From contig OZ242005.1 in NCBI GenBank assembly GCA_965204725.1, forward strand, positions 4,448,001 through 4,512,000: a stretch of DNA of 64,000 nucleotides. The letters run 5' to 3'. This document shows, piece after piece, positions 1,392 to 27,911 of this stretch (positions within the stretch are counted from its first letter, which is position 1; every line of letters starts with the position of its first letter). The translations under genes were made by a program, and so were the position numbers. Under the pieces are notes generated by a model. It saw nothing but the letters and a program-made list of their open reading frames with translations. It made no database searches and had not been told where the DNA came from. The DNA comes from Candidatus Latescibacterota bacterium (lineage in GTDB: Bacteria; Latescibacterota; UBA2968; UBA8231).

Positions 1392-4300
1392 ATGATGATA
1401 CACACAAAGTTGTCGATACGGCTGGCTTACGTGCCTTGGCTGCTGGCCGCTGGTTTGGTATTGGGATGGAGCGAGAAGGCTGTGGCTGCTACGAGCTCTA
1501 CGAGCGGCCATAGCTCTGCGACGAATCATCCCCATGCCACCAATCCCAATTTGGTTTTGACTTATGACCTGCTCAGGTCGGGTTCAAACCATTCGATTAC
1601 TGTGAGCTGGAGTACGTCGAACTCGAGGAATTTCAGCACGGGTAATGGGACCGCTGCCACTATGTACGCGGTGAGCTTATACAGCGGCGAGATCGATTCT
1701 GATCTTACTAGCCCGACTGATACTCGAGTAGGTAGCGAACAGTCGTATTCCGGTGCCACCATCGGTACGCGGACCTATTCCTTTACGGACGCCGCGATTA
1801 AGTATGAGGGGGAGGAAGTAGGGGCTACGGGTAAGTACTGGGTCAGGATGGCGGTGACGGTGACCAGCACAGACCAAGGTCATACTTCGGGCGTTGTTGA
1901 GTATTTTGCCAAGCAGGTAACGGTGCGGGCGGACTATATCCTGTCGGTCAATCCCAACAGTGTGCGCGAGGACGCCCGTAGGACCAACGTCACTGTGAAA
2001 GTCAAAGTGGGCAATGACGTCGCAGTGGGTAGGGAGACGAATGTGAACTTGGAGTTCTCTACTCCCGCTGGTAAACTCGGGCTCAACGACCGCTTCTACA
2101 TAACGCTGCCCACGCTCATTATTCCCAAGGGCCAGAAAGAGGCAACCGCGACCATCGTCTTTACCCCGATTAACGAAGACACCCAAAACGAGGATCTCGC
2201 GGTCACCATCTCGGGTAGGGCCACCTCTCAGGAGGCCGTCAAGCCGACGACGATTACGCTGGTTGACACCGACAAGCAAAGCAATGCGATCAATCTTTCG
2301 TTTTCGGATGCCGATCTAAGCAAGCGGGATGGGACAGTCAATATCGTCGTGACGGCCACGCTGAATGGAAAAACGCAGAGAAAAGACCTGACTTTTTCCT
2401 TGGTTATTGATGAAACAAGAAGTGAAGCAGCGGGCTTGGAACGCGATGTGGACTACACGGCGGTACTGTCCCGGATAACCATTCCAGACCGCAAAGTGTC
2501 GGGGAGGGCGACGATTTCCATCCGCCCCAAGAACGCCGGAACCGGCATGATCTGGCTGAAGGCTCCTGCCAACGCCAACCTGACGAATGACGACGACAAT
2601 CCCGTAACCGTGAATCCCAACTCCATCGAGATAACGGGCGATCCGGCTGGGTCGATTACCGGGCTGACAGCGGCCCCGTTCTCAATCCGCGAGGACGCTG
2701 GCGCGCGGGTGATCACCCTGAAGGTTTCCTTGGAGAACGCCTTGCTGACGGACGAGAGGGTCCAGTTCACCATCACGGACGACAGCGACGATCTGGGGGA
2801 GGCTTTTGAAGGCGCAGTAGATGCCGAGCGCGATGTGGATTACTCGGCGGAGGTGCAGGCGCTCACCATTCCCAAGGGCCAGAAAGAAGGGACGACGACG
2901 ATCATCGTCACCCCCATCAACAACAAAGACGATGACCCGCCGCGAGCCTTTAAGGTGAATGCGAGGGTTGGCACCAACGCATCCTTCGTCACGGGAATCC
3001 TGATTACCGACGACGACACGACGAGCGATTCGATCACCCTAGAGGTGACTCCGGCCGAGATAAACGAGGACGCCGGTGCGACCACGGTTACGGTGACCGG
3101 CACCTTAAACGGAAAGGTGTTCAGCGATAACGTGGTCGTCGCCTTGGTCATTAACAACGACGTGAATGACGATGGCGAGGTAAACGACGATGACAAGGCG
3201 GCGACGCGCGATGCAGACTACACAGCCGTCCTGCGCCCGTTGGTGATTCAGGGCGGCTCGGTGTCGGGGACGACGACGATCACCATTACCCCCACTGCCA
3301 ACGACGGGGAGGAAGACGACGAGAAGTTCCGCATAGCGACCCTAACTTCTACCCTGCCCAGAGCAAGAGACGAGGATGGGGACCTGCGAGAGCTGGAGGT
3401 CACCCCAGCGACGATAACCCTGAAAGACATCGAGGATTCAGACACGCCGACAACGACGCCGGACCCGAGGGTCCCTTCCTTCGCCAGTGCCGATGCGATT
3501 GACGACCAAGTGTACACGGTTGGGACCGCGATTACCCCGCTCGTCCTGCCGGAAGCTACGAGCGGCGATGGCACCCTGCTGTACAGCGTCTCCACCCTGC
3601 CGGCCGGCTTGGCGTTTAACGGTTCCACGCGGACGCTTTCGGGTACGCCGACTGCGGCCGGAACTTCTACCATCATTTACACGGTGATCGACCGCGACAG
3701 TGACGCGGCCGCGCTGACCTTCTCCGTCACGATCAACGCGGCTGATCCGGGGACGACGACGCCACCACCACCGGCTGCCGACACTGGGCTGACGGCGAGT
3801 CCGTCGTCCATCCGCGAGGACGCGGTCGCGACCGAAGTCTTTCTGACCGCGACCTTGCCGGCTCCCAAAGCCACGGCCGAGAGCGTGACGTTCACGATTG
3901 TCGGTCCGAGTGGGGGTCCGCCGGCCGTGCGCGATTTGGACTACACCGCGATACTCGGAAAGATCGTTATCATTCCGGCGGGTGCGACCGTTGGGACGAC
4001 GTCATTCACCCTCACCCCTATTGACAACTCCAAGGTGGATGGTGCGAGATCGTTGGGCGTGCAGGCTGCGTTCTCATCCGGTGGGAGGCTGGTGACGAAC
4101 ATTGAGATTGCCGACGACGAAACCCTGAGTACGTCCATCTCGCTGTCGGTGGATCCGCGCACGATAAGCGAGGAAGGCGGTGAGGTCTCTGTTACGGTGA
4201 CCGCGACGTTGGACGGGAGGGCGTTGCTAGCAGACGCCACCGTGCGCTTGACCATTGATGCCGCCTCGACCGCGCTGCGCGATGAGGACTACGCCGCGCT

Positions 4301-5399
4301 GTTCAATCCGCGGCTGATAATCCCGGTCGGTTCGATAACCGGGTCAACGCCGTTTGTGGTCCGCCCCATTGACGACACGGTAGCGGAGGGCAACGAGACC
4401 ATCAAGCTGACTGGTGAGATTGCAGGTCTGGCCGGGGACGCGGTCGAGATCATCCTGAGCGACCGAGGAACGGAACAGCCACCGCAGGAGCCGGAGCCAG
4501 AGGAGCCGGAGGAGCCGGCCCTTGGCTTTGCCGCCGACACGGTGATCGCGGACCAAGGGTACACCGCTGGCACGGAGATTCCCGCTCTCGTACTGCCGGC
4601 CGCTGTGGGCGGCACGGGCGCCTTGACGTACAGCGTCTCGGCCCTGCCGCCGGGCTTGTCGTTTGACGAGACCACGCGGACGATTACCGGCACCCCGTCG
4701 GAAGAGACCGAGGACGCGGTCCGCATCATCTACACGGTGATCGATGGCGACGGAGCCGCGGCCGCGTTGACCTTTTCCATCACGGTCAATCCCCCGCTAG
4801 GTCTTTTATCGCTTTTCGATTTGTTCAACAAGATGGGGGCCGGTAGCGGTAAGGTCATTCCGATGTCGCCCCACGCGGCTGAAATCCGCGAATTTGTCGT
4901 GGGCCAGCGCGTAGAGGGCCTTACGCTGCCGGAGGGGACCGGCGGCACCGCCCCGCTGACGTATCGCCTTGCGCCAGCTCTACCGGCGGGGTTGGCGTTT
5001 GACGCGGCCACGCGGACGATTGCCGGGACGCCGCTGGTCGCGGGCGCACCCGTCTATACGTACACGGTTACGGACGCCAACGGCGCGAGCGCGTCGCTGG
5101 CCTTGCAAACGCTGCCGGTCGAATTCGCGCTGGCAGACAACTTTCCGAACCCGTTCAACCCAGCGACGACGATCCAATACGCGCTGCCGCAAGCGGCCGA
5201 TGTGGCACTGATCGTGTACAACGTCGTCGGTCAGCCCGTGCGCACGCTCGTCGCCGAGCACCAAGGCGCCGGGCGGTATGTCGTGGAGTGGGACGCAACC
5301 GACGATGGCGGGCACCGCTTGTCGTCGGGCATGTATTTCTACCGCTTACAGGCGGGCGACGAGTTCCGCGAGGTCAAGAAAATGCTGCTGCTCAAGTAG
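1392..5399 (+). CDS. 1335-aa surface protein with Calx-beta-like/Ig repeats and FlgD-Ig/T9SS-like C-terminal domain
   Basis: Signal peptide (PWLLAAGLVLGW...AVA), repeated SIRED/RDxDY modules, LPAGL.F...TRT..GTP repeats, NFPNPFNP tail. Confidence 0.9.
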   Translation: MMIHTKLSIRLAYVPWLLAAGLVLGWSEKAVAATSSTSGHSSATNHPHATNPNLVLTYDLLRSGSNHSITVSWSTSNSRNFSTGNGTAATMYAVSLYSGEIDSDLTSPTDTRVGSEQSYSGATIGTRTYSFTDAAIKYEGEEVGATGKYWVRMAVTVTSTDQGHTSGVVEYFAKQVTVRADYILSVNPNSVREDARRTNVTVKVKVGNDVAVGRETNVNLEFSTPAGKLGLNDRFYITLPTLIIPKGQKEATATIVFTPINEDTQNEDLAVTISGRATSQEAVKPTTITLVDTDKQSNAINLSFSDADLSKRDGTVNIVVTATLNGKTQRKDLTFSLVIDETRSEAAGLERDVDYTAVLSRITIPDRKVSGRATISIRPKNAGTGMIWLKAPANANLTNDDDNPVTVNPNSIEITGDPAGSITGLTAAPFSIREDAGARVITLKVSLENALLTDERVQFTITDDSDDLGEAFEGAVDAERDVDYSAEVQALTIPKGQKEGTTTIIVTPINNKDDDPPRAFKVNARVGTNASFVTGILITDDDTTSDSITLEVTPAEINEDAGATTVTVTGTLNGKVFSDNVVVALVINNDVNDDGEVNDDDKAATRDADYTAVLRPLVIQGGSVSGTTTITITPTANDGEEDDEKFRIATLTSTLPRARDEDGDLRELEVTPATITLKDIEDSDTPTTTPDPRVPSFASADAIDDQVYTVGTAITPLVLPEATSGDGTLLYSVSTLPAGLAFNGSTRTLSGTPTAAGTSTIIYTVIDRDSDAAALTFSVTINAADPGTTTPPPPAADTGLTASPSSIREDAVATEVFLTATLPAPKATAESVTFTIVGPSGGPPAVRDLDYTAILGKIVIIPAGATVGTTSFTLTPIDNSKVDGARSLGVQAAFSSGGRLVTNIEIADDETLSTSISLSVDPRTISEEGGEVSVTVTATLDGRALLADATVRLTIDAASTALRDEDYAALFNPRLIIPVGSITGSTPFVVRPIDDTVAEGNETIKLTGEIAGLAGDAVEIILSDRGTEQPPQEPEPEEPEEPALGFAADTVIADQGYTAGTEIPALVLPAAVGGTGALTYSVSALPPGLSFDETTRTITGTPSEETEDAVRIIYTVIDGDGAAAALTFSITVNPPLGLLSLFDLFNKMGAGSGKVIPMSPHAAEIREFVVGQRVEGLTLPEGTGGTAPLTYRLAPALPAGLAFDAATRTIAGTPLVAGAPVYTYTVTDANGASASLALQTLPVEFALADNFPNPFNPATTIQYALPQAADVALIVYNVVGQPVRTLVAEHQGAGRYVVEWDATDDGGHRLSSGMYFYRLQAGDEFREVKKMLLLK

Positions 5400-23740: not shown

Positions 23741-26023
23741 TCAAAACGCGAATTTGAAGCCCAGCGTGGGCATGATGGGCAATTGTCGGACCACCTGCGG
23801 CTCGGTGCCGGGATTGTCCGCATCGAACTGCACGAACCACTCGTTGCGCCGGCTGTACAGATTGAACACCTGCACGTAGAACTCGCTGTCGGTCCCCCAC
23901 AGGCCGAACTGGCGGCTGACGCTAACGTCGAGGCGATGGTAGGGCAGCAGGCGGGCGCTGTTGCGCCGAGCCGGCAGCACGTAGTCCTCCTCCACGCCGG
24001 TAGTCGGTACGCGCAGCGTATAGCGGGCCGCGGCTGGCGTGAAGGCCTGTCCGGTGGCATATACGAGGTTCGAGCCCAAGCGCCAGTCCCCCGCGTTGTA
24101 CGAGACCACAAAGGATAGGTCGTGGCGGCGGTCGTACTTGGGGGGGAAGGCACGCCCTTCGTTCAATTCGGGGAAGGTGCGCCGCGTCCAGCCGAGGGTA
24201 TAGCCCACCCAGCCAGTGAGGGCACCGGTGCGCCGCTGCAAGAAGACCTCTAGGCCGCCGGCCCAGCCGTGGCCGCCGCTCTTGAATATGTCGTCCGAGC
24301 GCGTGTCCTCGCTATCCGCGGCCACGGCGTTGTCTAGCACCACCAGATTTGCCAAGTCCGTGTAGTAAGCCTCGACCGAGAGTTGGTAGCGCCGCACCGG
24401 ATTCCACTCGGCCCCCACCACGCCCTGATACGAGCGGCCCGGCTCCACGGTGCTGTCGAGCGGGACCCAAAAATCGCCGCCGCTAAAGGCTTCGGTGGTG
24501 ACCAATTGCAGGTACTGGCGGTACATCCCGGCCGCGGCCTTGAGCCGAACTTTTTCGCTGAGCACCCGGCTCAGGGAGAGCCGCGGCATGAAGTGCAGGC
24601 GGTCGCCGACGCTAAAGTACGTACCCCGTCCTCCGAGGCGCAGCCGCGTCAGCGGCCCGGCCTGCCATTCGTCCTGCACATAGGCCGAAAGCAGCACCGG
24701 CTCTTGGCGCAAATCGGACTGGTCCTGCTGGTTGAAGGACTGGGCAAAGCGGAACTCAAAGAAGGTGGCCAAAAACCCGAGGGACAGGGTGTGGTCGCGG
24801 TGGGCGAAGTAGTCGATGTCCCCCTTGAGCGACAAATCGCGGATGCTGTTGGTAATGCGGAAGGGGGTGTCGAAGAAACTGAACGAGAGGATGCTCTCGT
24901 ACGACGAGCCAGCCGCCATAAAGTGGCCGAACAGAGCCGGCGAGAACACCCGCTTCCAGTGCGCGGTCAGGGCGCGGTTGCCCCAGCGCAGATCGGCGAA
25001 GGCCTCTTCCGCCGTCTCTCCTGTATCGGCAAAATCGAACCGCAGATCGTCTTGGCCCCAGTACGTGCTGACCGAAAAGGTGTCGTCCCCCCACCGCTGG
25101 TTGACTTTGCCGTTGAAGTCGTAGAAGTAATAGTTCAACGGAATATCCACTCCGCGAGCGCGAAGGGCACTGAACACAGGTTCCAGATACGTGCGGCGGC
25201 CGGCCATCATCCACGACCCTTGTCCCACCGGCCCTTCGGCTAGCAAGCGGCTCGCGATTAGGCTGACGCCGCCCCGGCCGCTGAAGCGTTGTCGGTTACC
25301 CTCGCGATTGCTCACGTCGAGCACCGCCCCGAGCGTGCGGCCGTACGCGGCCGGGTAAGCCCCTTTGTATAGCTGGACATCCTTGATGGCGTCCGGGTTG
25401 AAGGTGGAGAAGAAGCCGAAGAGGTGGGAGGGATTGTACAGGGGAATGTTATCGAGGAGGATGGCCGTTTGGTCGGGACCGCCGCCGCGCACGTACAGGC
25501 CGCTGCTAATATCCGAAGCCGACTGGATGCCCGGGAGGAGTTGCAAGCTGCGGAGGAGATCGGCCTCGCCAATGGCCGGCATTTGCTGCAACGGCTCGAC
25601 CTGTAGGGCGATAAAACTGCTCTGGGTGGCCTGCTCCAGTTCTTCGCTGCGCTCGGCCTCCACCAAGACCTCTTCGCCAATATCGACCGGCTTGGGCGTC
25701 AGCACCACGTCGAGCCGCACGGCCTCGTTGTCGGCAAACCGCAGCGTGTCCCGCTGGGTCTGGTAGCCTATGTGCGACGTGCTCACCACGTGCAGACCAC
25801 TCGGCACTTGCTGGACTGCGTAGTAGCCGCTGGAGTTGCTGACCGCCCCCAGTTGAAGCCCCTCCACCACGACCGAGGCCAAACTCAGGGCTTCGCCGTT
25901 GTCGGCATCGGTGACAAAGCCGCTCAGGGTCGCCGCCGACGCCGACCCCGCCCAGAGAAGCCACGCGGCCAGCACTCGTAAGCCGCTCAGCCTATTCTGC
26001 GCGGTCTTGCCAATTTTCGTCAT
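23741..26023 (-). CDS. TonB-dependent receptor with N-terminal carboxypeptidase-regulatory-like domain
   Basis: Signal peptide; LSGFVTDADNGEAL; plug LQLLPGI...LYVRGG.PDQ; C-terminal YHRLD...NLYSRRN...GFKFAF. Confidence 0.93.
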   Translation of the reverse strand: MTKIGKTAQNRLSGLRVLAAWLLWAGSASAATLSGFVTDADNGEALSLASVVVEGLQLGAVSNSSGYYAVQQVPSGLHVVSTSHIGYQTQRDTLRFADNEAVRLDVVLTPKPVDIGEEVLVEAERSEELEQATQSSFIALQVEPLQQMPAIGEADLLRSLQLLPGIQSASDISSGLYVRGGGPDQTAILLDNIPLYNPSHLFGFFSTFNPDAIKDVQLYKGAYPAAYGRTLGAVLDVSNREGNRQRFSGRGGVSLIASRLLAEGPVGQGSWMMAGRRTYLEPVFSALRARGVDIPLNYYFYDFNGKVNQRWGDDTFSVSTYWGQDDLRFDFADTGETAEEAFADLRWGNRALTAHWKRVFSPALFGHFMAAGSSYESILSFSFFDTPFRITNSIRDLSLKGDIDYFAHRDHTLSLGFLATFFEFRFAQSFNQQDQSDLRQEPVLLSAYVQDEWQAGPLTRLRLGGRGTYFSVGDRLHFMPRLSLSRVLSEKVRLKAAAGMYRQYLQLVTTEAFSGGDFWVPLDSTVEPGRSYQGVVGAEWNPVRRYQLSVEAYYTDLANLVVLDNAVAADSEDTRSDDIFKSGGHGWAGGLEVFLQRRTGALTGWVGYTLGWTRRTFPELNEGRAFPPKYDRRHDLSFVVSYNAGDWRLGSNLVYATGQAFTPAAARYTLRVPTTGVEEDYVLPARRNSARLLPYHRLDVSVSRQFGLWGTDSEFYVQVFNLYSRRNEWFVQFDADNPGTEPQVVRQLPIMPTLGFKFAF

Positions 26024-26044
26024 ATCTGCTCAAATCTGCTTGGA

Positions 26045-26210
26045 GTCGGAACTTAGAAAAATCTATTGAGCGAGTTGCACCGGACGTTGTCAAGTCCCGG
26101 GGGGCGGGACTGCTGACGGACGAGAGGGTCCAGTTCACCATCACGTTGCACCGGACGTTGTCAAGCCCCGGGGGTCGGGACTTAGAAAAACATAGCGAGC
26201 GAGTTGCACC
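26045..26210 (+). CRISPR. Orphan CRISPR-like mini-array: two 37-bp repeats, one 34-bp self-matching spacer, degenerate flanking units
   Basis: R1 26074-26110 GTTGCACCGGACGTTGTCAAGTCCCGGGGGGCGGGAC; R2 26145-26181 (2 mismatches); spacer 26111-26144 identical to 2743-2776; partial repeats at 26045-26052 and 26203-26210 separated by related 21-bp linkers; no cas genes in window. Confidence 0.5.
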
Positions 26211-26468
26211 CTCGGCAAAACGGCTCGGGCCACCTATGACGTGCTTGACTATTAGGTCTAAAGGTACGTAATTTTTTGTTTAAGAAGATCATAGATGCAA
26301 TCCAATGGAAAGCTAAGACGCCTACATCGCCGCTAAGAAGTTGCCCCAAAAACCAGAGGAAGTTATCGCGGAACCCAAGGCATGGTGCTAGCTGGTCTTT
26401 CAGCGAATCCGGCCAGCGTAGCGGTGCTTTCTCATGGTCGTAATTCCTTCTGAGACAGGTTCTATCAA

Positions 26469-27911
26469 GTGCTCCGTGAGCTCCGCCGCCTCCCGTCGTT
26501 CGTAAACCACCACCGAAGTACTTGGCTGCTCAGCCTTTATCTAGGCTTGGCGCCGGTCTATCACTTGCCGGGCATTGGCAACGGGTATCTGCGCCTGTTC
26601 AAGGTCGCGCTCGCGATAGCGGCGGTAGCGGTTGTGTTGGTCCCGCCGCTGCTGTCGGGCAAGCTCCGGCTTCCGGCGTGGGCACTGGGGGTTCCGGGGT
26701 TTTTGGCCCTTATCTTCCTTTCGACCCCAGGGGTGGTCCAAGCCCCAGAGGTGTCCCTAAACATCATGTTCGCCATGGACATCGGGTTCGCCGCGGGGTT
26801 TATGTGGTGCTTCTTCTATCTAGCGCGTCAAGGAGAAAACGTCTCCGCCATCCTCACCCGCACCTTAGTCATAATTTTGCCCTTGGCCACAGTTGCGTTC
26901 GCGAGTGCGCTCGTCAAGATACCGAATTGGGCCGATCCCTGTGACCAGCTTTGGCGGCCGGAGTACAGCATAGGGTTCGGCTCCAGCCCAACTCAGTGGT
27001 CGATCAGCCTGATTCTCTTATTGCCCTCTATCGGCTTGCTGATGGCCGGGGCGACCGGGCATAGGGCTATGCTTGGTGCCGCGTTGGCCGGCATCCTCTT
27101 TGGCAGCCAATTTTTGACCGGCGGACGCACTGGTTTTCTAATATCAGCGGTTTCGATTGGCATATTGGCCTTCCTACAGCCATCGAGACGGTTGGCCCTC
27201 TCAGGGGTTGCCACCGGAGTATTGATCGCTGGGATGATCGTCTTTAGCCAAAACCAAGCATGCTCCAAACACATAGGGCTGGACCGAGTGTTGGCCCTAG
27301 CCGACGTGGACAGACCCCCGGCCCCCAAGCCGGTCGTGCGTACTGGGCCTTCTCTGCGCCCGCGAACAGGCCCCGGCGTGGACAGACCCTCCGAGCCCGC
27401 ATTATCCCCTTTTCTCGCCAGTTTGGACACGCTCGGCACCACCCGGTTCGAGGGGTACAAAATCAGCCTCAGACGGATTGCCGAGCGGCCCTTTCTTGGG
27501 CATGGGATAGAGAAGATATTGCTCAGGGGGCATCACAAGCCCGAAGTCGAGATTCACAACCTTTGGCTCAAGTGGTCGACATACAGTGGAATTCTCGCGC
27601 CGCTCTGGTTTGCGATTATGGTAGGACTCATCCTACTCATCGCTCTTAGGCTAGTTGCAAACCGCGACGACGCCCCGGAAAACAGGTTTGTTGCGGCCAT
27701 GTTGGGACTAATCGTAATATCGGGCCTCACGGCTTCGATGTTGGAACCCAATGCCCTCATCGGGTCGTTTCAGTACACCGCTATTTGGTGGGCGGCCGCC
27801 GGAGCACTAGCGGGCATCTACGCGAAGGAGCGCGGCCTCCGGGAGTGGTCAATGCGTTTCAGCACCAAGCGAGGGTTGGAGATTGAGCCGTCACATGCCG
27901 CTGTCAACTAG
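26469..27911 (+). CDS. O-antigen ligase / Wzy-like membrane protein
   Basis: Multi-TM; TGGRTG, R...RPFLGHG, IHNLWL motifs; start codon uncertain. Confidence 0.85.
   Translation: MLRELRRLPSFVNHHRSTWLLSLYLGLAPVYHLPGIGNGYLRLFKVALAIAAVAVVLVPPLLSGKLRLPAWALGVPGFLALIFLSTPGVVQAPEVSLNIMFAMDIGFAAGFMWCFFYLARQGENVSAILTRTLVIILPLATVAFASALVKIPNWADPCDQLWRPEYSIGFGSSPTQWSISLILLLPSIGLLMAGATGHRAMLGAALAGILFGSQFLTGGRTGFLISAVSIGILAFLQPSRRLALSGVATGVLIAGMIVFSQNQACSKHIGLDRVLALADVDRPPAPKPVVRTGPSLRPRTGPGVDRPSEPALSPFLASLDTLGTTRFEGYKISLRRIAERPFLGHGIEKILLRGHHKPEVEIHNLWLKWSTYSGILAPLWFAIMVGLILLIALRLVANRDDAPENRFVAAMLGLIVISGLTASMLEPNALIGSFQYTAIWWAAAGALAGIYAKERGLREWSMRFSTKRGLEIEPSHAAVN

Follow-up and report, generated by a model that had tools for sequence, protein, structure and literature searches.

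Cas1-Cas2 can found new CRISPR arrays away from existing ones, as described for E. coli, where off-target integration created such arrays (Nivala, Shipman & Church 2018, as related in PMC7054753, PMC6698737 and bioRxiv 10.1101/148544). In these accounts, integration was induced with overproduced Cas1-Cas2 and supplied oligonucleotides, and it left a spacer-sized insert at a non-CRISPR site together with a duplication of native repeat length, forming a repeat-spacer-repeat. The unit described here has the same layout, yet it is a natural population polymorphism with a self-derived spacer, in a genome that no longer encodes the integrase. For the E. coli events, a figure of 28 bp is reportedly given. 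Beyond E. coli, the evidence for off-target integration presented in bioRxiv 10.1101/148544 is only circumstantial and comes from two other species. According to PMC6698737, Cas1-Cas2 of Pyrococcus furiosus performs full-site off-target integration in vitro at G/C pairs one repeat-length apart. The repeat-like border bases (G1, T2 ... A, A, C) and the paired attacks reported there resemble what is seen, or suggested, at the present unit, although that work concerns plasmids in vitro and a 30-bp spacing, whereas here the setting is in vivo and the spacing 37 bp (PMC6698737). The present unit lies in a 64,000-nucleotide stretch of a Candidatus Latescibacterota genome (the window, meaning the whole stretch analysed), and we regard it as a likely natural counterpart of this laboratory-demonstrated off-target integration.

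Two further groups of loci invite comparison. Self-targeting spacers accompanied by degraded CRISPR-Cas were reportedly read by Stern et al. in 2010 as a sign of autoimmunity, not of regulation. These cases share a perfect self-match and decayed cas genes with the present locus, but their spacers sit in canonical arrays, whereas here the spacer sits in a newly made pseudo-array. As the pseudo-repeat is not expected to be recognised by any known Cas6, autoimmunity is not needed to account for the loss of cas genes. Orphan mini-arrays, on the other hand, can have regulatory or homing roles, as exemplified by the homing guides of CRISPR-associated transposons and the scaRNA of Francisella. Like them, the unit carries one or very few spacers and has a chromosomal target; however, they are accompanied by a cognate effector in the same genome and carry a repeat of that effector's family, and neither was found here.

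The locus bears on how CRISPR arrays are born. It offers an unusually clean natural case: filled and empty alleles coexist in related strains, the spacer can be traced to its origin with single-nucleotide precision, and the genome bears the marks of a subsequent loss of its CRISPR-Cas systems. The unit is thereby a concrete substrate for testing what makes a non-CRISPR site an integration target.

Architecture of the unit and source of the insert

The two 37-bp direct repeats with two mismatches that a sequence-only reading of the window had described are confirmed at the positions given in Table 1. R1 and R2 are identical at 35 of 37 positions, the mismatches falling at repeat positions 22 (26095 T in R1, 26166 C in R2) and 31 (26104 G in R1, 26175 T in R2). 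Judged against R2 and the empty-site allele described below, the two derived substitutions are those of R1, 26095 T and 26104 G. The direct-repeat search returned a repeat of 38 nt at a spacing of 71, the additional position being scored because a T comes after both copies. The borders are ambiguous by 1 nt on each side, and the repeat therefore measures 36-38 bp and the insert 33-35 bp, the sum always being 71. The unit is bordered by G1/T2...A36/C37, and the insertion is blunt. Compared with a CRISPR-array layout of at least two near-identical repeats of 23-50 bp and unique spacers of similar length, it shows the minimal form only, namely two 37-bp repeats and one 34-bp insert, and TRF found no tandem array over it.

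Table 1 Features of the repeat-insert-repeat unit, its surroundings and the source of the insert (positions in the window)
Feature	Position	Strand	Remarks
Repeat copy R1, 37 bp	26074..26110	+	Direct sequence reading and direct-repeat search
Insert ("spacer"), 34 bp, exact copy of 2743-2776	26111..26144	+	Sense polarity of gene 1392-5399
Repeat copy R2, 37 bp	26145..26181	+	Matches the single copy of the empty-site allele
Older direct repeat, copy 1, 40 nt	26042..26081	+	37 nt if counted from G26045
Older direct repeat, copy 2	26171..26210	+	85% identity to copy 1
TonB-dependent receptor (CarboxypepD_reg + Plug)	23741..26023	-	Unit in its upstream region
Wzy_C (O-antigen ligase-like) ORF, divergent neighbour	26469..27911	+	First gene of a polysaccharide cluster, not an effector
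Protospacer	2743..2776	+	Calx-beta/Ig-like repeat region of the 1335-aa surface-protein gene
Source gene, 1335 aa	1392..5399	+	He_PIG Ig domains, FlgD_ig / CHU_C-like C-terminus

The insert is a copy, on the same strand, of a segment 23 kb away, extending to 35 nt when the next G is counted, and this claim of the earlier reading also stands. Within the window, the 34-mer gave two matches at up to 3 mismatches, compared with none in 100 shuffles. The segment had further been said to be missing from the paralogous genes, in agreement with the finding that DNA identity among the paralogous domains does not exceed 79%. The protospacer is flanked by CCT on its 5' side and GGA on its 3' side, and a TTG at 2742-2744 straddles its 5' boundary, overlapping the first two inserted bases. 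The PAM of type I-G is TTN (PMC6547450). Spacers of relatives gave five good matches to G000, too few for PAM inference.

The insert is an internal gene fragment of 34 bp with one source only, and three other origins were considered and rejected. Slippage or tandem duplication would draw on adjacent sequence, whereas the 34 bp derive from 23 kb away. A transposon or MITE with target-site duplication does not fit a single-source gene fragment, and no inverted repeats were found. Finally, microhomology at the insert borders is at most 1 nt, which argues against template switching. The sequence GGACG follows the protospacer and also the opening 8 bp of the repeat, but a switch at this microhomology would yield a second repeat without GTTGCACC, which is not observed.

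Filled and empty alleles

As a check for chimeric assembly, k-mer contigs were inspected, and both junctions are covered in two runs that belong to separate studies, X1 and X3. In each of them independently, contigs spanning 25700-26140 and 26116-26600 agree with the window with 0-2 differences, each passing one repeat-spacer junction by 29-30 nt. A chimera joining the promoter to the surface-protein gene might be suspected, since a 35-mer is common to two loci, short-read graphs therefore branch at the unit, and the Logan contigs do break at 26140 and 26116. In X1, however, the corresponding 35-bp unitig at 26111-26145 has a depth of 230 against 102-113, i.e., about twofold. Together with the crossing of both junctions in separate studies and an alternative allele that differs by exactly 71 bp, this doubled depth makes a chimera exceedingly improbable.

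The alternative is an empty-site allele, in which 26073 is joined to 26145 and exactly 71 bp are skipped. It is present in run X8, as a 4329-bp contig at a depth of 54 with zero differences from 26145-26181, and in one contig of run X4; the unit is missing in sister strains that are ~98% identical. We infer that the change ran from empty to filled. Recombination between the repeats, turning filled into empty, would be another possible origin of the empty allele. Another contig of X4 links 26048 to 26145 and skips 96.

The empty allele also bears on the ancestral state, for which a 58-bp tandem unit had been proposed from the sequence. This is essentially right, the empty allele being its natural instance; a more apt description is an older direct repeat of 37-40 bp around a segment, Y, of 18-21 bp. 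In R2, 21 bp of Y are framed by 8 bp from the end of one older repeat and 8 bp from the start of the next. No source sequence for Y was found in the genome.

The duplicated segment

Copy 1 of the older direct repeat contains a genus-conserved motif, TTAGAAAAA..GAGCGAGTTGCACC, which is found upstream of the TonB-receptor orthologue in relatives. Among eight loci of relatives inspected, GAGTTGCACC is identical or differs by one base in seven (L002-L004, L006, L007, L009 and L011), and the L005 locus has a version with several base differences. The first 8 bp of the 37-bp repeat are the end of this promoter-region motif, and what was duplicated is demonstrably plain promoter DNA. At the orthologous loci of eight relatives, no direct repeats of 24 nt or more were found within 160 bp.

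The repeat pair is unique in the 5.43-Mb genome. The 34-mer has only two sites at up to 6 mismatches, and the 37-mer only the R1 and R2 sites at up to 8 mismatches. An exact 21-mer of the repeat had no match in genome contigs and none in metagenome contigs, scans that may exclude records of the window's own genome, and none of the 20 congeners with loci matching the region yielded the 37-mer. A genome-wide scan returned 139 direct-repeat pairs with periods of 50-95 bp, 22 of them with a remote copy of the intervening segment. In 20 of these 22 the period is divisible by 3, marking them as coding repeats, and one is a dispersed repeat at 62 places; a period of 71 combined with a single remote copy is seen at this locus alone.

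The pseudo-repeat was also compared with 14 sampled repeats, comprising 13 consensus repeats of genus arrays (L027 being left out) and the solo repeat of G000. The best identity was 17/37, with p ~0.007 for one test and no significance after 28 comparisons. Judged by its sequence, the 37-mer is not a member of a CRISPR repeat family. It might still be speculated that a genuine, formerly longer array with an unsampled repeat family has shrunk to this unit, as the repeat is 37 bp long, begins with GTTGCA, ends with GGGAC and has a 3' hairpin, and as cas genes have been lost from the genome. Yet the 8 bp at its start close a motif that other species also conserve in the intergenic region orthologous to this one, and in the empty allele the only copy of the repeat lies inside an older direct repeat. 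The 21-mer recurs in neither contig collection, and the spacer is self-derived and undiverged. Taken together, these findings render such a remnant highly improbable.

CRISPR-Cas in the genome and genus

HMM searches of the genome gave no match to Cas1, Cas2, RAMP, Cas9 or TnpB/Cas12f. Likewise, tblastn with the ORFs of relatives' cas loci found no effector or adaptation gene among the best matches at E <=1e-8, the family search being run on part of the low-identity ones. Cas12a stands outside this effector negative, as the control for its profile search matched nowhere. The cas3_core profile gave sub-threshold matches only, of which a broken Cas3g was the best.

Two relics of CRISPR-Cas loci are present. 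The first (C1:1374679-1375343) combines a solo 37-bp repeat with a 63-aa fragment that matches residues 1-83 of Cas6 from a relative; at the syntenic site, relatives have intact Cas6/Cas10/PrimPol/Cas1/Cas2 loci. The second (C1:1208528-1209753) is a frameshifted and truncated Cas3g, covering model positions 2-353 of 854, and is syntenic with an I-G/III-A locus that carries Cas4g/Cas1g in relative G019. At a further site, at 2.97 Mb, four relatives have kept CRISPR-Cas loci; in this genome the site is occupied by ankyrin-repeat, hydrolase and Imm_superinfect genes, and neither a cas relic nor a repeat was found there. Two candidate cas remnants, at C1:4813598 and C1:4860074, were rejected, as they are cold-shock and DUF433 domains.

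Across the genus, Cas1 is found in 20 of 30 congeners, and 9 of the 14 genus arrays fetched have a 37-bp consensus repeat. For the L027 array, consensus extraction gave only 20 nt, while its first repeat is 37 nt. The array of L028, which has I-C-like cas genes, combines 37-bp repeats with spacers of 34 bp (16 of 41) or 35 bp (16 of 41), so that 32 of 41 give the same 71/72-bp period as the unit. No relic of the L028-type system, which fits the unit best, was found in this genome, and in the families of the relic systems spacers are mostly 36-41 bp, placing 34 bp at the short end. Capture of self DNA occurs in the genus, since one spacer in a canonical array of relative G007 is identical over 38/38 nt to a second site in the G007 genome. 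In G000, the same 38 nt have flanks that we take to be the 5' end of the 16S rRNA gene.

Origin of the unit

The earlier reading had offered ectopic integration by an unknown integrase as one explanation. In support of this idea, the duplication of 37 bp on either side of a 34-bp insert reproduces the array geometry of the genus, and with two decayed CRISPR-Cas loci kept in the genome the integrase need not be unknown. We therefore consider it likely that the unit arose by off-target Cas1-Cas2 integration of a self-derived prespacer and is a natural "neo-CRISPR" that is now inert. A prespacer of ~34 bp would have been excised from the surface-protein gene on the chromosome of the cell itself and joined by two staggered transesterifications, 37 bp apart, to a non-CRISPR site upstream of the TonB receptor whose ends mimic repeat ends (5'-GTT...AC-3'). 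Gap filling would then have duplicated the 37-bp segment, giving repeat-spacer-repeat and adding exactly 71 bp. The integrase may have come from a CRISPR-Cas system since lost by the lineage, acted in an ancestor or been supplied in trans.

Several observations point to Cas1-Cas2. The duplicated segment has the native repeat length of the genus and of this genome's solo relic repeat, the insert of 34 bp (33-35) matches the spacers of L028-type arrays, and the border bases resemble canonical repeats of the genus. Also in favour are the clean 71-bp difference between the two alleles, the frequency of Cas1 among congeners, the cas relics of this genome, the self-derived spacer of G007, the near lack of junction microhomology and the precedent in E. 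coli. From these we infer the agent and the kind of system responsible, the enzyme being hypothetical for this strain because its present genome has no Cas1 or Cas2. The insert looks young, since it has 0/34 differences from its source and is polymorphic among ~98% identical strains, and this sits uneasily with the truncated state of the cas relics. No clean PAM is apparent either, the flank being CCT, the similarity of the pseudo-repeat to genus repeats is weak, and the 34-bp insert is short for the relic systems; these points count against Cas1-Cas2. As R1 has two substitutions relative to the empty allele and the spacer none, one must invoke errors during gap filling, selection, or an insertion of greater age followed by a secondary deletion in X8.

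A Cas-independent insertion would avoid some of these difficulties. A 34-bp chromosomal fragment may have been captured when a break whose ends were staggered by 37 nt was repaired by fill-in and end joining, or inserted by an unknown integrase that makes duplications of ~37-40 bp. The lack of Cas1 and Cas2 in the genome and the recent look of the insert are in line with this, as is the segment Y, whose 18-21 bp fall short of the usual spacer length. The older 37-40-bp repeat around this sourceless segment lies at the same site, so a similar stagger may have acted twice. However, the sizes of 37 and 34 coincide exactly with arrays of the genus, cas relics are present and the borders are GT...AC; moreover, no bacterial repair pathway or transposase is known to give ~37-bp duplications with a blunt, unrelated 34-mer. 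On balance, a Cas-independent origin appears rather unlikely. Its bolder form is quite improbable: Cas1-independent and possibly still active machinery that inserts host DNA with duplications of ~37-40 bp, acted twice here, rewired the receptor promoter and placed a 34-nt antisense in its leader.

Possible function

Returning to a Cas1-Cas2 origin, the unit is most likely an inert molecular fossil today. The sequence-only reading had instead proposed a guide directed at the cell's own surface-protein gene, which it would silence, edit or switch. This proposal is not supported, as the HMM and tblastn searches matched no effector or adaptation gene in the genome, the repeat is unique to the locus, the spacer is sense to its target and sister strains lack the unit.

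A working RNA element could nevertheless take other forms, such as a mini-array crRNA with an unrecognised effector, or a receptor leader carrying a 34-nt antisense to the surface-protein mRNA. The perfect identity over 34-35 nt to a single member of a paralogous family is suggestive, and the two substitutions in R1 complete a 6-bp hairpin. The unit lies upstream of a gene on the opposite strand, that of the receptor, so any RNA initiated at 26145 or farther out would run antisense to the target. RNA from the plus strand, in contrast, would have the sense of the target. When the unit and each of its repeats were folded, on both strands, z-scores ranged from -0.65 to +1.92, none beating shuffles, and the repeats, which had been called weakly palindromic, retain of this description only the hairpin at the R1 3' end. 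Similarly, TTGACA does occur on the minus strand of each repeat, as had been noted, but the sigma-70 scan of 25900-26600 found no promoter-like site; terminator-like sites numbered one, against 1.0 expected by chance. An Rfam search of 25500-27000 at E <=1 gave no family match, so that no riboswitch or known sRNA was found. Add to this the unmatched Cas1, Cas2, RAMP, Cas9 and TnpB/Cas12f (cas3_core being sub-threshold only), a unique repeat that is partly a conserved promoter motif, the ~98% identical strains that lack the unit and the eight relatives' loci without such repeats, and a working RNA becomes very improbable.

The sole plausible present effect of the unit is cis-regulatory. The insertion would have doubled a 37-bp promoter-proximal segment with a TTGACA box and moved the upstream DNA 71 bp farther from the receptor. 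The locus suggests that spacers taken from the host genome can survive at sites that yield no crRNA, and for annotation it advises caution, as a perfect "self-targeting mini-array" is not necessarily a regulator. A weak lead only is offered by the 7-nt sequence TTAGAAA, which is present in the leaders of the L026, L032 and L036 arrays, 6-7 nt from the repeat, and upstream of R1, at a distance of 14 nt.

Structure and uniqueness of the unit

The unit lies upstream of the TonB-dependent receptor gene (23741..26023, minus strand) and consists of two 37-bp repeats, R1 and R2, enclosing a 34-bp insert, here also called the spacer. On the plus strand, the order is ...GGAGTCGGAAC / TTAGAAAAATCTATTGAGCGA / R1 / insert / R2 / TTAGAAAAACATAGCGAGCGA / GTTGCACC CTCGG.... 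The repeats differ at two positions (26095 T versus 26166 C and 26104 G versus 26175 T), and the insert is copied exactly, on the same strand, at 2743-2776 of the surface-protein gene 1392..5399 (+). Both repeats are followed by T and both copies of the 34-mer by G, which leaves the boundaries uncertain by one base per side: the repeats measure 36-38 bp and the insert 33-35 bp, always summing to 71.

No shuffle of the window contained a comparable match pair. In the whole genome (G000; 5.43 Mb, two contigs, the window being C1:4448001-4512000), the 34-mer (up to six mismatches) and the 37-mer (up to eight) were found at their two sites only. The insert derives from one gene, paralogous domains being at most 79% identical in DNA. 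The sequence, the shuffles and the genome search thus confirm the repeats and spacer match described by the sequence-only reading, including the lack of such a match in the paralogous genes. Furthermore, the whole genome was scanned for direct repeats spaced at periods of 50-95 bp: of 139 candidate pairs, 22 enclosed a segment with a remote copy. Twenty of these had periods divisible by three, representing coding repeats in paralogues, and one was a dispersed repeat present at 62 places; a period of 71 with one remote copy occurred at this locus only. The unit is a real and rare structure.

Coordinates of the repeat-spacer unit and of the cas relics (C1, contig of G000)
Feature	Position	Strand	Description
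R1	26074-26110	+	
Insert	26111-26144	+	34 bp
R2	26145-26181	+	
Relic 1, Cas6 fragment	C1:1374679-1374870		63-aa ORF aligned with the first 83 aa of an ORF of relative locus L026, 45% identity
Relic 1, solo repeat	C1:1375307-1375343		37 bp, ~440 bp downstream of the Cas6 fragment
Relic 2, Cas3g	C1:1208528-1209753		Two adjacent ORFs matching type I-G model positions 2-119 and 116-353 of 854

Filled and empty alleles

Alleles with the unit (filled) and with a single 37-mer and no insert (empty) were read from Logan contigs of four sequencing runs, among them X1 (organism A, which may be the source sample), X3 (sponge metagenome of a separate study) and X8 (organism B). In both X1 and X3, one contig matches 25700-26140 without differences and a second extends over 26116-26600, so that the repeat-spacer junctions are each spanned by 29-30 nt. 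The contig ends fall within the 35-mer, as a k-mer graph predicts for a two-copy word, and the 35-bp unitig 26111-26145 has about twice the surrounding depth (230 versus 102-113 in X1 and 79 versus 47-50 in X3). With both junctions covered in two runs, the unit is real DNA and not the chimeric assembly that the sequence-only reading had considered.

The empty allele is found in X8 on a 4329-bp contig (depth 54, flanks ~98% identical), where 26073 is joined to 26145 and 71 bp are skipped exactly, and in the fourth run, X4, on one contig (depth 11.7) with the same join. The five substitutions and both indels in the right-hand piece of X8 all lie outside 26145-26181, and its single 37-mer therefore is identical to R2; the 35-mer is also present in the X8 copy of the source gene. 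From these comparisons, we infer an empty ancestral state and the gain of both substitutions by R1, although deletion between the repeats could also have given the empty allele.

In X1 and X3, a second near-identical copy (3 differences) of the 49 bp at 25928-25976, coding for the receptor N-terminus, is located on a separate contig of ~5-6 kb. G000 C1:4364055-4364177 matches the overlapping stretch 25928-26044, which points to a putative paralogous receptor gene.

Ancestry of the site

BLAST revealed a conserved motif, ...TTGAGCGAGTTGCACC..., upstream of the TonB-dependent receptor orthologue in other species of the genus. At seven of the eight loci shown (L002-L004, L006, L007, L009, L011), GAGTTGCACC is identical or one base different, and L005 carries a version with several base differences; G000 has no site besides this region. 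Because the motif is conserved in the orthologous region of relatives, the 21-bp linker together with GTTGCACC is ancestral promoter-region DNA and does not derive from CRISPR; the 37-bp repeat simply opens with the final 8 bp of the motif.

The site also contains an older direct repeat (26042-26081 and 26171-26210; 40 nt, 85% identical), which in the empty allele stands on both sides of an 18-21-bp segment, Y (GGACGTTGTCAAGCCCCGGGG), that has no second copy in the genome. The 37-bp duplication, which is later than the older direct repeat, starts with 8 bp from the end of old copy 1, continues through the 21 bp of Y and finishes with the opening 8 bp of old copy 2. It had been envisaged that orthologous loci might carry different spacers or none, and the latter was observed: comparable direct repeats are absent from the orthologous loci of eight relatives, and strains ~98% identical lack the unit.

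GGACG follows the protospacer (2777-2781) as well as the first 8 bp of each repeat (26082-26086 and 26153-26157). On the repeat side, it falls at the junction between the old direct repeat and Y, and the CAC(C)/GGACG resemblance may be chance. In L002, L003 and L004, ~285 bp lie between TAGAAAAAC beside the receptor start and the motif's TTAGAAAAAC; this segment is absent from G000, so either the relatives gained it by an insertion that duplicated 9 bp, or G000 lost it by deletion between short repeats. Synteny with relatives stops ~20-45 bp right of the second motif copy, and the next ~240 bp, AT-rich by eye, lead into a Wzy_C / GT4 / flippase polysaccharide cluster. The stretch 26211-26468 resembles the edge of an island specific to the strain or species.

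CRISPR-Cas relics and arrays in the genus

Profile searches of the genome gave no match to Cas1 (PF01867), Cas2 (PF09827), RAMPs (PF03787), TnpB/Cas12f (PF07282) or Cas9 (TIGR01865); the Cas12a model matched neither G000 nor control genomes, making that search uninformative. A tblastn search with ORFs of at least 120 aa, 621 in all and taken from 14 relatives' cas loci, returned flanking or housekeeping genes, apart from two cas relics (see table). The ORF matched by relic 1 is Cas6 (PF10040), the solo repeat belongs to the family ...GACCCGxTTTxTAGGGGAyTGAAAC, and the flanks share synteny with L026, L035 and L036, CRISPR-Cas loci of relatives. C1:1374679-1375343 is a decayed CRISPR-Cas locus, its counterparts in relatives being intact Cas6/Cas10/PrimPol/Cas1/Cas2 loci. 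L026 encodes Cas6, a Cas10 fragment, a TM1812-family protein, a CRISPR-associated primase-polymerase, Cas1 and Cas2. The primase-polymerase of this type III-like locus (L026:7621-9552; NF040561, E 6e-107) has an N-terminal TPR region and is encoded immediately upstream of Cas1-Cas2. Relic 2, by its ORF layout a frameshifted and truncated Cas3g gene, shows synteny with L027 at the right flank of the latter; L027, from relative G019, is a composite I-G + III-A locus encoding Cas8g, Cas7g, Csb2, Cas10, Csm3, Csm4, a CARF protein and a 544-aa Cas4g/Cas1g.

The 3' half of the genus type I-G repeat (GCGCCCCGGCCTCATTGAAG) occurs in G000 as two exact 20-nt copies 64 bp apart (C1:3848585-3848670) and as a lone 17-nt copy (C1:824313-824329), which may represent remnants of array ends or isolated repeat units. 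In addition, L024, L025, L028 and L031 are CRISPR-Cas loci of differing types that four relatives keep beside one conserved gene (G000 2969604-2970902). In G000 the site (L037; C1:2970000-2978000) is instead occupied by ankyrin-repeat genes together with an alpha/beta hydrolase and an ORF with an Imm_superinfect domain. This site looks like a variable defence hot spot.

Cas1 is present in 20 of 30 congeners. The consensus repeat is 37 bp in nine of the 14 arrays retrieved, 32 bp in three and 28 bp in one; for L027, consensus extraction gave 20 nt only, the first repeat as read being 37 nt. The L028 array, accompanied by I-C-like genes (Cas5c, Cas8c, Cas7, Cas3, Cas1c), combines a 37-bp repeat with spacers of 34 bp (16/41), 35 bp (16/41), 36 bp (6), 37 bp (2) and 32 bp (1), and its period of 71/72 bp is that of the unit. 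I-G and type III-like arrays have spacers mainly of 36-41 bp. Every well-defined repeat in this set has ...AAC or ...AGC as its end, and GT is the usual start; the pseudo-repeat begins with GTT and ends with AC. Its best agreement with the sampled repeats, 17/37, has p ~0.007 as a single test and is not significant after 28 tests.

A canonical array of congener G007 contains a spacer (L036 spacer no. 6; G007:C2:198488-198525) identical over 38/38 nt to G007:C2:2564168-2564205 (L048), and therefore adaptation in the genus captures self sequence. The same 38 nt are present at G000 C1:3614790-3614827, where we take the flanks to be those of a 16S rRNA gene at its 5' end, read in the direction of the rRNA. 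The tolerated self-spacer of G007 is possibly RNA-derived or from highly transcribed DNA.

Proposed mechanism of insertion

The simplest account of the unit, and in our judgement the probable one, is off-target, full-site integration by Cas1-Cas2. Two staggered attacks, 37 bp apart, on a GT...AC-bounded segment would have inserted a self-derived prespacer of ~34 bp, and gap filling would have duplicated the 37 bp. By analogy, enzyme behaviour in other organisms fits this account. P. furiosus Cas1-Cas2 performs full-site reactions at non-CRISPR sites, at G/C one repeat-length apart and with border bases like those of the repeat (PMC6698737). In Haloarcula, a ruler governs repeat duplication (PMC4872114), and E. 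coli overproducing Cas1-Cas2 is reported to have formed new arrays via off-target integration (Nivala 2018, as cited in PMC7054753 and bioRxiv 10.1101/148544). Together with this geometry, the two cas relics and the filled and empty alleles favour ectopic integration, which the sequence-only reading had listed as an alternative. Template switching was rejected, as junction microhomology is at most 1 nt and the GGACG microhomology would give a structure other than that seen.

Several points sit less comfortably with Cas1-Cas2. The integrase is absent from the present genome, yet the insert looks young (0/34 differences, strain-level polymorphism), and the families of both relic systems mostly use spacers longer than 34 bp. 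The protospacer flank, CCT, offers no clean PAM, and a TTG overlaps the first two inserted bases; this boundary-overlapping TTG would fit the type I-G PAM, TTN (PMC6547450). R1 carries two substitutions within 10 bp and the spacer none, an excess possibly due to error-prone gap filling or selection for the hairpin, or to an earlier date of insertion followed by secondary deletion in X8. Finally, the older direct repeat of 37-40 bp around Y suggests that this site underwent another event with a similar stagger, although Y is shorter than normal spacers. Given the absent integrase, the spacer length, the PAM, the R1 changes and the older repeat, Cas1-Cas2 integration is rated probable rather than certain, and a Cas-independent origin is kept as a less likely alternative.

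With Cas1-Cas2 integration as the preferred account, the best reading of the unit is the birth of a natural "neo-CRISPR", kept in a lineage that later lost CRISPR-Cas; the spacer could persist because a self-derived spacer would be neutral where no crRNA is made. The unit belongs to a laboratory-demonstrated kind and is not a new regulatory system. Among the open-access papers searched, judged by titles and abstract openings, no natural example turned up for which both alleles are known and the self source is identified.

Present function

The proposal that the unit is a self-directed guide is unsupported, considering the lack of an effector, the unique repeat, the sense polarity of the spacer on the plus strand and the near-identical strains without the unit. 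The neighbouring genes are the TonB receptor (-), a Wzy_C-like ORF, a GT4 glycosyltransferase and a flippase, with no effector among them. Folding of the unit was not significant, and Rfam had no match in the unit region. A possible minus-strand receptor transcript starting upstream of 26145 would contain a 34-nt antisense to the surface-protein mRNA. Any present effect would most likely be cis-regulatory, through duplication of the TTGACA-box segment and the added 71 bp of spacing.
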